Source: Mustelus asterias
Taxonomy: Eukaryota
DNA: 64,000 nucleotides
Direction: 5' to 3'
Assembly (NCBI RefSeq): GCF_964213995.1
Contig: NC_135813.1
Coordinates: 101,680,001 to 101,744,000, forward strand
Below the pieces are notes generated by a model that did not search any database, had not been told where the DNA came from, and saw only the letters and a list, made by a program, of their open reading frames with translations. Below, piece after piece: positions 1 to 3,545 of this stretch (its first letter is position 1; every line of letters begins with the position of its first letter). A program made the translations under genes and the position numbers.

Positions 1-223
1 AGTTTCTGAATAATGACTAACAATCTTCAAACAGCCCTAACCTCCATAAAATGTTGGTACAAATTCCTCATTTTGCAAAGGAAATATGAAAGATACGTCT
101 GTACCTCCATCTGATCAGACAGAAGCACCACTATTATCCATTCAGTTGACAACAAGATTACCCATTTGCTACTTGATTTGTAACAAGGATGTGAATGACA
201 GTAAGTAATCCCAACTCCCCATG

Positions 224-625
224 ATAAGTACCTGGCAGGGGAGAGTCAACGATCAGGCAGGTTGATCTCCCAGGGTGAGACTATCCCATTGCTCTTGGGG
301 GTGTGTTGACACCTACGATGGAAGTTTGCCAAGGCGAGGGTAGAGTAAATTCTCAGGGTAGCCAATGAGGTTAAACCAAGGCTTTACCTGATGCAATTTT
401 TCAAAGCCATCTCGGCCTTCTGGCTGAGATGAAGCATCAGATCAAGCCCGGAAGGGGGTGCAATGCCTCATCCTGTCAGCTTGGATTTTGTTTGATTGAA
501 CCCAAGATGGGATGCAATGTCTTGTCTTGTCAGCTAGGATCTTGTTTGTCCCTCATGTGGGGACCTAATTTGAATTGGCATTTTTGATTAGAAATAAAGT
601 ACTGAAAGCTACCAATAAAAAAAAA
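224..625 (+). mobile_element. U1/U2 snRNA-derived SINE (SINEU-like)
   Basis: 224-319 aligns to U1 nt ~1-97 (ATAAGTACCTGGCAGGGGAGA...). 404-445 resembles the U2 5' end (CTCGGCCTTCTGGCTGAGAT). Two tandem diverged U2 segments start at ~459 and ~513, followed by a stem IIb-like GTCCCTCATGTGGGGAC (548-564) and an Sm-like ATTTTTG (580-586). AATAAA and an A-tract end at 625; possible TSD taagtaat at 202-209 and 629-636. Confidence 0.8.
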
Positions 626-1318
626 GGATAAGTAATGGTGACCACCTACTCTTAGTTCAATTGGTAATAAGGAACTTTATTGTCCCAATGGGGGTTGAGG
701 TGGACCAGCTGGATCAAATATCAGTCGGGGAACATTTAGGGGATTGTGATTATTGTATCATCAGGTTTAGATTGGCGATGAAAAAGGACAACTGCAATCC
801 AGAATAAGAATAATTAAATGGGGGAAATCCAACCTCAATGGAGTAAGAAGGGATCTGGGCCGCGTAAATTGGAATCAAAAGTTAACAAGCAAAATGGTAA
901 TGGAATAATGACCAGCCTTTGTCAAGGAGACAGTTTGTGTACAGAGTGTGTTCCTGCAAGGGGAAAGGTAGCAGCAACAAATCCAGAGCTCCCTGGATGA
1001 CAAAAGAGATTGAAATTAAGATGGAGCAGAAAAAAATGTGCTTATGACCGATGTCAAGTGGATAATACAATTGAGAATCAGGCTGAATATAAAAGGTTCA
1101 GAAATGAATTGTAAAATCAAATAAGCAAAGGAAAGAAATAATACGAAAAGGGACTGGCAGCAACAAAGAAGGAAATTGAAATGTCTTCCACAGGCATATA
1201 AATAATAAAAAAGTGGTAAGAGGGGCCCAATCGGGACCAAAAAGAGGACTTCGGCATGGTGACAGGAAGCATGGCTTTGATGTTAAATTAGCATCTATCT
1301 TATCAAATTTGTATCCTT

Positions 1319-1668
1319 TTTTAATTCATTCATGGGATATGGACGTCGCTGGCTGGTCAGCATTTATTGCCCATCCCTAGTTGCCTTTGAAGGGCAATTG
1401 AGAGTCAATCATATTGTTGCAATTCTGGAGTCACATGTCAGCCAGACCAGGTAAGCTTGGCAGATTTCTCTCCCTAAAGGACATTAGTAAATCAGTTGAG
1501 TTTTTCCGACAATGGTTTCATGGTCATCAGTAGATTCTTAATTCCAGATATTTTTTATTGAATTCAAATTCCACCATCTGCTGTGGTGGGATTCGAACCT
1601 GGATCCCCAGAACAGTAGCTGAATTTCTGGATTAATAGTCTAGCAATAATATCGCTAGGCCATCGCCT
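1319..1668 (-). mobile_element. tRNA-derived SINE, second family (tail ...ctagggatgggcaataaatgctggcc...gaatgaat)
   Basis: The reverse strand has a tRNA-like head with B box (ggttcgaatccc). Near-identical copies occur at 23646-23970 (+) and 59143-59493 (-). Confidence 0.85.
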
Positions 1669-1694
1669 CTTCTATTACCAAGGATGAAGATGCA

Positions 1695-1801
1695 GCCAAT
1701 TCAAATTAGGTTCAATCATGGTTCCCACATGAGGGACAAACTAGATCCAAGCTGACAAGATAAGACATTGCATCCTATCTTGGACTCAATCAAACAAGAT
1801 C
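1695..1801 (-). mobile_element. Second, partial copy of the U2-derived body of the SINEU-like element
   Basis: The reverse complement (gatcttgtttgattgagtccaagataggatgcaatgtcttatcttgtcagcttggatctagtttgtccctcatgtggg...cctaatttgaattggc) matches ~485-579 with scattered substitutions and an indel. It sits inside a CR1 ORF2 relic. Confidence 0.85.
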
Positions 1802-2797
1802 TATTGTGAAAGAGGAGGTAATTCAGACACAAGGAGGGTTTAAAATTGATAAAGAGGAAGCCCTGGGTAAATTATTGGTGCTTAAAGTTGATAAGGTACC
1901 AGGAGCAATGATGAGATGCATTCAATGGGATATGGAAGGAAGTGGGAGTGGAAATTGCAGAGGCACTGTCCATAATTTTCCAATCTTTCTGCGAGGTGGT
2001 GCCAGAGGAATGGAGAGTTGCAAATGCTACACCCTCGCTCAAAAGGGATGTGAAGATAAGCCCAGCAACTTCAGGCCAGTCAGTTTAACCTCGGCGATGG
2101 GGAAGATTTCAGAAAGAATAATTTAAAACAAAATTAATAGTCACTTGGGACAATGCAGGTTCATTAAGGAAAGACAGCATTTGTTCAAAGTAAATCATGT
2201 TTAACTAATGTGCATAAGTTTTTGATGAATTAACAGAAAGGCTTGATAAGGGTAATGTCGTTGATGTGGAAAAGACATTTGATGAAGTGCCACATGACAG
2301 ACTTGTGGTCAAAATGACATCTCAATAAATAAAATGGACAGTAGCAGCATGAGTGGCAGGAAACAAAGGGTAGGGGTGAACAATTGTTTTTTAAACTGGA
2401 GAAAGGCTTATAGTGCAGTTCCGCAGGGATTACTAATAATCTAGACTTTGCTGCGCAGTGCACAATTTCAAAATTTACAAATGATACAAATCTTGGAAGT
2501 ATTGTGAACTATGGGGCGGATAGTGTAGAATGACTTCAAAATGATTTAGAGAAAGGTTTGTGGAATGGACAAGTGTCAGATGAAATGTAATGTCGAGGTG
2601 TGTGAAGTGAAATCAAAATTCAGTGTGATGGGGAGACCACACAGAGAGACAATATAAAACATAGACTACAATTCCAAAAGGGGTGCAGGAGCAGAGGAAT
2701 CGGAGTGTATACTGCAAAAATACTGAAGGTGGCAGGACAAGTTGAGAGCACGGTTTATGGAGCAGATGCCATTTGGGGCTTTATCAATAGAGACATA

Positions 2798-3545
2798 GGG
2801 TGGAATTTTCCAGCCCTTCCCACTGGCGGGATTGTCCCATCTCGCTGAAGGTGACCTTTTGCAGCTGGTTCCTCGGTGGCGTAGCTGGTGAGCAACGGAA
2901 AAGACCATTGACTTCGATGGGCCCGCCGGTAGCCAATGGCAAGTCGCCTCCGCCACTGGAAAGCCAGCCACGGGGAGTGTGATAATCCCAGTTTGTTGGG
3001 AAACTTGACCCGCTTTTAACCTGCCCTGAAACTCCGGAGAACAACATTCCGAACTATTTTCCCACCATTGGGAAACTGATTTTTTGCCTCATGCCACGTT
3101 CATTGGCCCTGTCATTATTCTGCTGCAATGTTGGGGGACCCCATTTACATTCATTAGCATCTCATGAATGCTCATCAAAAAGGCTAACTCGCCAGGATCA
3201 CAATTCCGTCCTGTCAGCAGGTAATCAGAATGTTCTGTTTTGCCACTGTCTATAAGTGGGGTGCATCTGACAAGTTTCACTTCATCCACATCCTGAAGGT
3301 CAGTAGAAGCTGCTTTGTCTTCCTTTTAAAACCATCATTGCTACATATCGGGTGCCTGTAGCAGAAGCTACATGAAGGCTGGGCACAGGAGGCACAGTAA
3401 GGAGTCTAACAACACCAGGAGGCACGACCAGTGAGGAGGGGTAAGATGGGGGCGGGATGGCCAGAGGGCAAATGTTAAAGACTGTGGGGGAGGGGGGGGG
3501 GGGGGGCATGTTTAAGAGACTGTCCTGGAAAGGTTGAGTGTCCAG
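2798..3545. mobile_element. Truncated non-autonomous DNA transposon (Harbinger-like terminus gggtggaattttcc)
   Basis: Its terminus resembles the TIR motif of other MITEs here (58313, 58583). It interrupts a CR1 relic; no matching right TIR was seen. Confidence 0.4.

Follow-up and report, generated by a model that had tools for sequence, protein, structure and literature searches.

We found that positions 229-625 of the window, by which we mean the whole 64-kb stretch of Mustelus asterias DNA analysed here, are a single 5'-truncated, A-tailed and decayed copy of an abundant SINEU-like repeat. Alignment to snRNA genes of the same genome resolved this repeat into pieces of U1, U4 and U2. We assign a probability of about 0.82 to the reading that the copy belongs to a retroposon present in several thousand copies, likely mobilised by a LINE, and that its U1 stem I likely came from a variant U1 gene instead of evolving within the element. 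A preliminary description of this DNA had proposed that selection on the master RNA preserved stem I of both U1 and U2 even as functional motifs changed. At those two stems the proposal was not supported, because the stem I changes appear to predate the element and the motif changes reflect either a target-site duplication or rare decay. A fold that was kept while its motif was lost was found instead at about 439-546, in a hairpin derived from the U2 branch-point stem-loop.

To place the copy in a family, we searched the 3.68-Gb genome with window positions 200-600, which returned 4033 first-look candidates. Forty of these were scored, and the 39 other than the window copy were 79-86% identical to it and were spread over many contigs. 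The window copy belongs to what we call subfamily A. A related subfamily B gave 2759 first-look candidates and has a shorter U1 head and a single hairpin unit, compared with two in A. In the alignments, copies begin at U1 nt 1 or close to it and finish in an A-rich tail about 15 bases past AATAAA. The majority sequences of A (389 bases) and B (273 bases) are both 3' A-tailed and shorter than 500 bp, and the median identity to the majority in the non-CpG body was 94% for A and 92% for B. Derived features common to dispersed copies, namely an 11-base deletion and substitutions, indicate a family as opposed to independent retrocopies. Matching contigs were also present in three of four sequencing runs from other organisms (161-3257 each); the remaining run (X6) had just three short U1-like contigs and none with the element body, contigs being unable to prove absence.

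At gathering thresholds, Rfam had no match and ARAGORN no tRNA within the 64-kb window. The Rfam U1 model matched positions 224-352 with 55.5 bits (E 2e-12), which is below its gathering score of 69.5, and the Rfam U2 match to the window copy was weak (E 5.9). Alignment identified segments corresponding to U1 1-96, U4 23-47, U2 7-31 and U2 23-105, and every one of them outscored all 200 shuffles. The features of the window copy are listed below, where U1b denotes the variant U1 type described further on.

223..230, plus strand: 5' target-site duplication GATAAGTA, host DNA, with an exact repeat at 627-634; its final two bases are compatible with U1 nt 6-7 as well
229..320, plus strand: U1-derived head, U1 nt ~6-96, of U1b type to at least nt 61 and of subfamily-A type from nt 73
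239..271, plus strand: stem-loop I of U1b; three of its pairs differ on both sides from those of the main intact-looking U1 type
272..315, plus strand: U1 stem-loop II, its U1A loop carrying a rare A-to-T change
321..336, plus strand: probably what is left of an older U1 head (nt ~38-52 of U1), judged from family alignments; alone it does not exceed shuffles
337..357, plus strand: likely decayed second U1b fragment, nt ~14-34, judged from copies of subfamily B and from L078, a tandem copy
358..382, plus strand: U4 nt 23-47, from the 5' stem-loop and presumably its K-turn region; score 38 against a best shuffle of 32, 22 of 25 bases identical to the genome's own U4
393..402, plus strand: U4 Sm-site-like stretch with its final G changed to C; short, recognised from family alignments, alone not above shuffles
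408..434, plus strand: U2 nt 5-31, with stem I lengthened by two family-wide pairs; the loop change and G23 are rare
439..489 (core 452-472), plus strand: hairpin unit A1, which derives from the branch-point stem-loop of U2 and has another sequence in place of the branch-point motif; the unit has decayed here (z -0.05)
493..546 (core 506-526), plus strand: hairpin unit A2, a tandem duplicate of A1
548..564, plus strand: U2-derived stem-loop, which we take to be stem-loop IIb, with the stem kept and the loop altered
593..625, plus strand: AATAAA (593-598), short terminal hairpin (599-613) and A-rich tail (614-625), from sequence, family alignment and majority fold
627..634, plus strand: 3' target-site duplication GATAAGTA, directly past the A tail

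Two other repeats lie close by. A second, independent fragment of the family occupies 1694..1801 on the minus strand (majority positions 249-356, 92.6% identical), and a decayed LINE ORF2 fragment, which we assume to be CR1-like, spans about 690-1290 and begins about 55 bases past the 3' duplication.

The preliminary description had read the 5' end of the copy as a mutated 5'-splice-site recognition sequence, AAGTAC. On the plus strand of the window, GATAAGTA occurs only twice, at 223-230 and 627-634. Its presence on both flanks indicates that the window copy is 5'-truncated and that AAGTAC is host target DNA, a duplication and not a mutation of U1. Duplications of at least 8 bases flank 8 of 30 copies, compared with 4 of 870 mismatched flank pairs. 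At family nt 4-9 the canonical form was the commonest (9 of 30), most other copies being truncated or decayed.

We then compared the named stems and loops with the family and with the genome's own U1 genes. The fold of positions 239-271 has 11 pairs, a single bulge and a loop of 10 nt (-14.3 kcal/mol, z -3.4), and 2 of 200 shuffles did as well. The pairing and the loop length reported for U1 stem I were confirmed; the reference stem used in the preliminary description is not that of this genome. Relative to intact-looking genes of the same genome, three pairs are double-sided (19-45, 23-42 and 25-40). The stem of these genes is unlike that reference and varies among them, with a C-G to T-A swap and three loop sequences. 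At least four intact-looking U1 types coexist (L101-L108 and L114 versus the C8 arrays), differing in stem I and the U1-70K loop, and intact-looking types are located on C8, C10, C11, C22, C26 and C68. Stem II still pairs, as had been described (z -1.6, 16 of 200 shuffles as good).

The U2 stem I region does form the longer hairpin reported earlier, a 10-bp fold at 408-431 (z -6.4, 0 of 200 shuffles as good). Only two extra outer pairs are family-wide, each produced by a one-sided change (A6 in 28 of 30 copies, G28 in 29 of 30), and the perfect hairpin results from these two gains plus one rare change. At U2 position 23, A was found in 25 of 30 copies and G in 2; the loop was TTTT in 26 copies and TTCT in one. 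Contigs from other organisms mostly had T at 420 and A at 426. Likewise, the altered U1A loop, previously ascribed to the master RNA, is rare decay, since the window's form was found in 2 of 30 copies and the canonical ATTGCAC in 18. The U1-70K loop had also been called mutated. It is the U1b loop, one base off the loops of intact-looking genes, and G28, A29, T30, C31, A32, G34, A36 and G37 were kept in all eight aligned rows.

To trace the paired stem I, we searched for its variant 3' arm joined to an Sm site. This pattern gave 13 matches, 11 of which were near-full-length U1 copies with the stem, stem III and the Sm site. With further searches, and after exclusion of two chance hits (L061, L062) and of L066, which is identical to L063, the set comprised 15 distinct decayed near-full-length copies, which we refer to as U1b. 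Their majority sequence is full-length, with the 5' end, U1A loop and Sm site intact and stem I paired. It differs from the main U1 type at 17 positions, of which we read 12 as real differences, three as CpG decay and two as noise at the 3' junction; three of the differences are the double-sided stem I pairs. The U1b bases at nt 61, 73 and 124 were present in all 15 copies and in neither of two dispersed U1a-type copies. Among eight intact-looking U1 genes, one had the U1b base at nt 124 and none had those at nt 61 and 73. The marker at nt 124 lies beyond the U1 span contained in the element.

A 3'-box-like flank was found on 4 of the 15 copies (shuffle-free background fraction at most 0.01 each), most of the others being repeat-fused or truncated. 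An upstream promoter block or proximal sequence element was detected in 0 of 15 U1b copies, compared with 9 of 10 intact-looking U1 genes, and no intact U1b gene was present among the genome search matches, the best non-self match to the U1b query being 95% identical. The linked markers, together with the 3' boxes on some copies, suggest that U1b was likely once a real gene type, now lost or unassembled, and it may have been expressed. Taken together, we conclude that the paired U1 stem I was likely copied from this gene type, which is now visible only as dead copies. Derivation from a variant U1 gene, offered earlier as a fallback, thus gained support from the near-full-length copies with linked markers. 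Eight of the 15 U1b copies and one U1a copy also adjoin a tRNA-type SINE, presumably HE1-like, directly or within about 25 bases (L054, L056, L057, L060, L064, L065, L076, L095 and L113; U1 3' end). The U1a-SINE fusion is 99.4% identical to the gene, which implies that U1-SINE chimeras were still forming recently.

In subfamily A, an 11-base deletion that includes the stem I 3' arm was present in about 21 of the 30 copies chosen as window-like and in 10 of the 14 picked by their tail, so the consensus of many copies lacks the paired changes in this subfamily. The whole U1b stem was found in 5 of the 30 window-like copies, even though these had been chosen for likeness to the window. These counts leave out L161 (same place as L005) and 15 tail-picked loci short of the head, and they are approximate, automated alignments being poor for L003, L030, L155 and L171. 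Because about 21 of 30 sister copies lack half of stem I, we conclude that subfamily A did not keep the stem. Most copies of subfamily B have U1b stem I intact. On subfamily A, U1b heads switch to family sequence after about nt 38, 52-60, 61-72 or beyond 73, depending on the copy. Addition of snRNA pieces at the 5' end was recurrent, involving two U1 types, four or more switch points and nested heads, and the varied switch points are as expected of repeated template jumps onto U1 RNA. One subfamily B copy (L078; G000:C26, ~13191500-13191900, minus strand) has a head of about seven tandem 40-base units of U1b stem-loop I. For copies without the stem I 3' arm, folding of the subfamily A majority (nt 16-100) predicts that the 5' arm pairs with the downstream remnant of the older U1 head, so that stem II lies inside the pairing.

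Two other origins of the paired stem I were weighed against this evidence. The near-full-length copies could themselves be chimeras, in which the stem of subfamily B heads was template-switched onto an ordinary U1 3' part, so that U1b was never a gene. Template-switch chimeras of U1 with the tRNA-type SINE are common here and neither an intact U1b nor its promoter block was found; yet the B head (nt 1-52) contains none of the markers (nt 61, 73 and 124), which are linked in all 15 copies and missing from both U1a-type dispersed copies, and four U1b copies have the 3'-box-like flank. We therefore consider a chimeric origin very improbable. The original proposal was that the RNA of the element itself evolved paired U1 and U2 stems I together with mutations in its motifs for splice-site recognition and protein binding, so as to mimic an snRNP while staying out of splicing. 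The stems do pair, subfamily B kept U1b stem I, and U2 stem I was lengthened by two one-sided changes throughout the family. However, the same stem occurs in near-full-length U1 copies with linked markers beyond the U1 span of the element, the altered 5' end is a target-site duplication, few copies have the U1A-loop or U2-loop change, and the 3' arm is deleted in about 21 of 30 sister copies. This is the least probable of the origins considered, with hardly any chance of being correct. Derivation from a U1b gene type remains our preferred explanation of stem I.

Compensatory change was found in the U2-derived body. The core hairpin aligns gap-free to U2 nt 25-45, the branch-point stem-loop, for which the pairs G25-C45 and C28-G42 are described (PMC13019295). 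The majority folds were better than all shuffles in B (z -3.6) and in A (z -5.0), with 0 of 100 shuffles as good in each, and the window copy itself had a z of -1.5. The branch-point motif is replaced in both A units and in B. Over U2 nt 25-45, 7 of 9 pairs form in U2 compared with 9 of 9 in subfamily B after seven stem changes, an outcome reached in 288-1642 of 400000 random trials (0.07-0.4%). We then compared five family units, two of them supplied by a sister family C (9 copies). Pairing was present in 69 of 70 cells, 11 of them G-U, and double-sided change in 8 of the 14 pairs. Permutations were as good in 17 of 200000 cases, a figure that is not a probability because the hairpin was chosen post hoc, its structure was derived from the majority of a family, and the five units are related; slid controls paired in 21 of 60 to 37 of 65 cells. 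Pairwise neutral trials reached the observed pairing in 0.002-2% of cases in four comparisons and in an unremarkable 24-47% from B to A1. RNAalifold applied to 17 real units, picked near their majorities, predicted 15 pairs, seven of them double-sided. Among rare copy-level changes in the same pairs, 61 break and 18 keep pairing, suggesting that the constraint probably operated among source copies rather than on copies already inserted. Taken together, we conclude that the U2-derived hairpin was likely under selection, its pairing kept through changes between sister families.

How this pairing arose, and what it served, can each be explained in another way. A template-switch mutation, in which one arm is copied from the other, could have made or repaired the hairpin without selection on RNA shape; the mechanism has been described for RNA hairpins (PMC8794818), and these elements are copied by reverse transcription and contain local duplications. 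Copying of an arm gives perfect complements, however, whereas 11 of 70 cells are G-U and every family has bulges; the excess of pair-breaking changes in inserted copies (61 versus 18) also leaves no repair bias visible in genomic DNA. On balance we regard this route as unlikely and favour selection on the fold. The U2 branch-point stem-loop is a switch in the spliceosome. The fold of the body may have been kept specifically to hide or remove motifs that pair with pre-mRNA, thereby sparing splicing. Replacement of the motif in both A units and in B agrees with this idea; in family C, motif positions 33-36 are predicted to pair with an internal antisense stretch in 7 of 7 motif-bearing copies, and 5 of 6 motif bases are predicted to be open in the U2 gene. 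In contrast, predicted masking of the U1 5' end was -11.7 and -12.0 kcal/mol in A and B, compared with -11.3 kcal/mol at the unchanged junction, the U1a gene also folds away its own 5' end in silico, and the fold is equally explained by stability or by recognition by a LINE protein. We consider the specific splicing explanation doubtful, and that the element avoids interfering with splicing is speculative. We do not claim that the element adapted specifically to mask its U1 5' end, since the gain was only 0.4-0.7 kcal/mol. A broader model, which we put forward tentatively and think unlikely to hold as a whole, is that these retroposons are a dated fossil record of a wholesale-replaced U1 isoform and evolved by the rule of keeping the snRNA fold and burying or erasing the part that pairs with pre-mRNA, with the branch-point stem-loop locked shut in three sister families through different compensatory sequences, sparing splicing.

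A potential model for how the element was made is as follows. Transcription would be by RNA polymerase II from outside the element, as suggested by the internal T runs and by AATAAA before the tail. Duplications of 8-18 bases and A tails suggest that A and B may have been mobilised by a Tx1/L1-type enzyme, and a LINE reverse transcriptase of this type would copy the A-tailed RNA at a nicked target. Near the 5' end, the enzyme may often jump to free U1 RNA, so that heads would be re-captured from whichever U1 types were abundant at the time and would be disposable. Selection among source copies would likely act on the older U2-derived body, in which the branch-point stem-loop became a long stable hairpin and lost its motif, and after insertion copies would decay regardless of pairing.

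Searches for a source copy, either as a U1 promoter block followed by the element body or within a U1 gene as an A tail followed by the rest of U1, gave 0 matches each with exact patterns in a possibly incomplete assembly. The terminal hairpin (599-613), with a GAAA loop, lies between AATAAA and the tail of subfamily A and has 36 exact matches genome-wide; it is a candidate recognition signal for the helper enzyme. No LINE with the subfamily A tail was present among the 30 of 36 exact tail matches examined, and no U1-headed A or B copy was present at the U2 target site in the 11 loci examined. At one locus (L214; G000:C24:44814500-44824400), a U2 array contains a LINE placed before U2 nt 38 and recurring every 8035 bases. 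This LINE encodes a ZCCHC3-like ORF1 with a zinc knuckle, an endonuclease, a reverse transcriptase and a zf-RVT domain, with ORF2 split in this copy. The U2-headed sister family C occupies the U2 nt 38 site in 4 of the 11 loci examined, and it has the shared body at about 69-76% identity. Family C copies (L186, L187, L189, L204, L207) are often tandem at this site, and past the head they carry a stretch complementary to the 5' end of U2, by which the branch-point motif is predicted to be buried.

These results have consequences beyond one element. Recaptured heads and dead copies record a U1 type seemingly gone from the assembly, and thereby offer a way to date snRNA turnover. Family-level covariation singles out one hairpin, with a possible role in retrotransposition, stability or splicing tolerance. 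They also call for caution, because a paralogue that has escaped notice can give a single copy the look of compensation, and what seems to be a mutated motif can be a target-site duplication. How promoter-less elements of the SINEU type are made and tolerated is a question that the SINEU report left open in its account (PMC4494074), and the family described here extends the design to U4 and to the genome of a shark.

Among known systems, the closest are SINEU-1 and SINEU-2, crocodilian elements reported with none found outside crocodilians (Kojima 2015, PMC4494074). As described there, they resemble the shark element in being short, non-coding and A-tailed, with a U1 head, a U2 part and recurrent 5' additions of U1. 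Their U1 head was also replaced in subfamilies, which the report attributes to recombination with another U1 (SINEU-2), and internal T runs argue against RNA polymerase III in both. In contrast, the published description of SINEU names no U4 piece, whereas the shark body is almost wholly snRNA-derived (U4 and U2); compared with that description, the shark family also allows the donor U1 type to be reconstructed from dispersed copies and covariation to be measured. Human vU1 genes, as reported (PMC8457000), are like U1b in forming a second U1 sequence type in one genome. Many of the human variants described alter the 5' end or protein-binding loops, whereas in U1b the 5' end, the U1A loop, the Sm site and G28 are retained, the stem has compensatory changes, and only dead copies of the type were found. 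Keno is described as a Tx1-clade LINE that targets U2 genes (PMC4494074, PMC4640811). The LINE before U2 nt 38, with its endonuclease, reverse transcriptase and zinc-knuckle ORF1, is Keno-like by domains and site, and family C shares that site; U1-headed copies of A and B were not seen there. In the literature searched we found no report of a shark SINEU or a shark U1 variant; repeat databases (Repbase, Dfam) lay outside this search, and the family may already be catalogued in them. We conclude that the element is a variant of the SINEU design, and that what is new is the U4 piece, the shark host, a U1 isoform likely preserved as a fossil and a structural constraint that can be put to the test.
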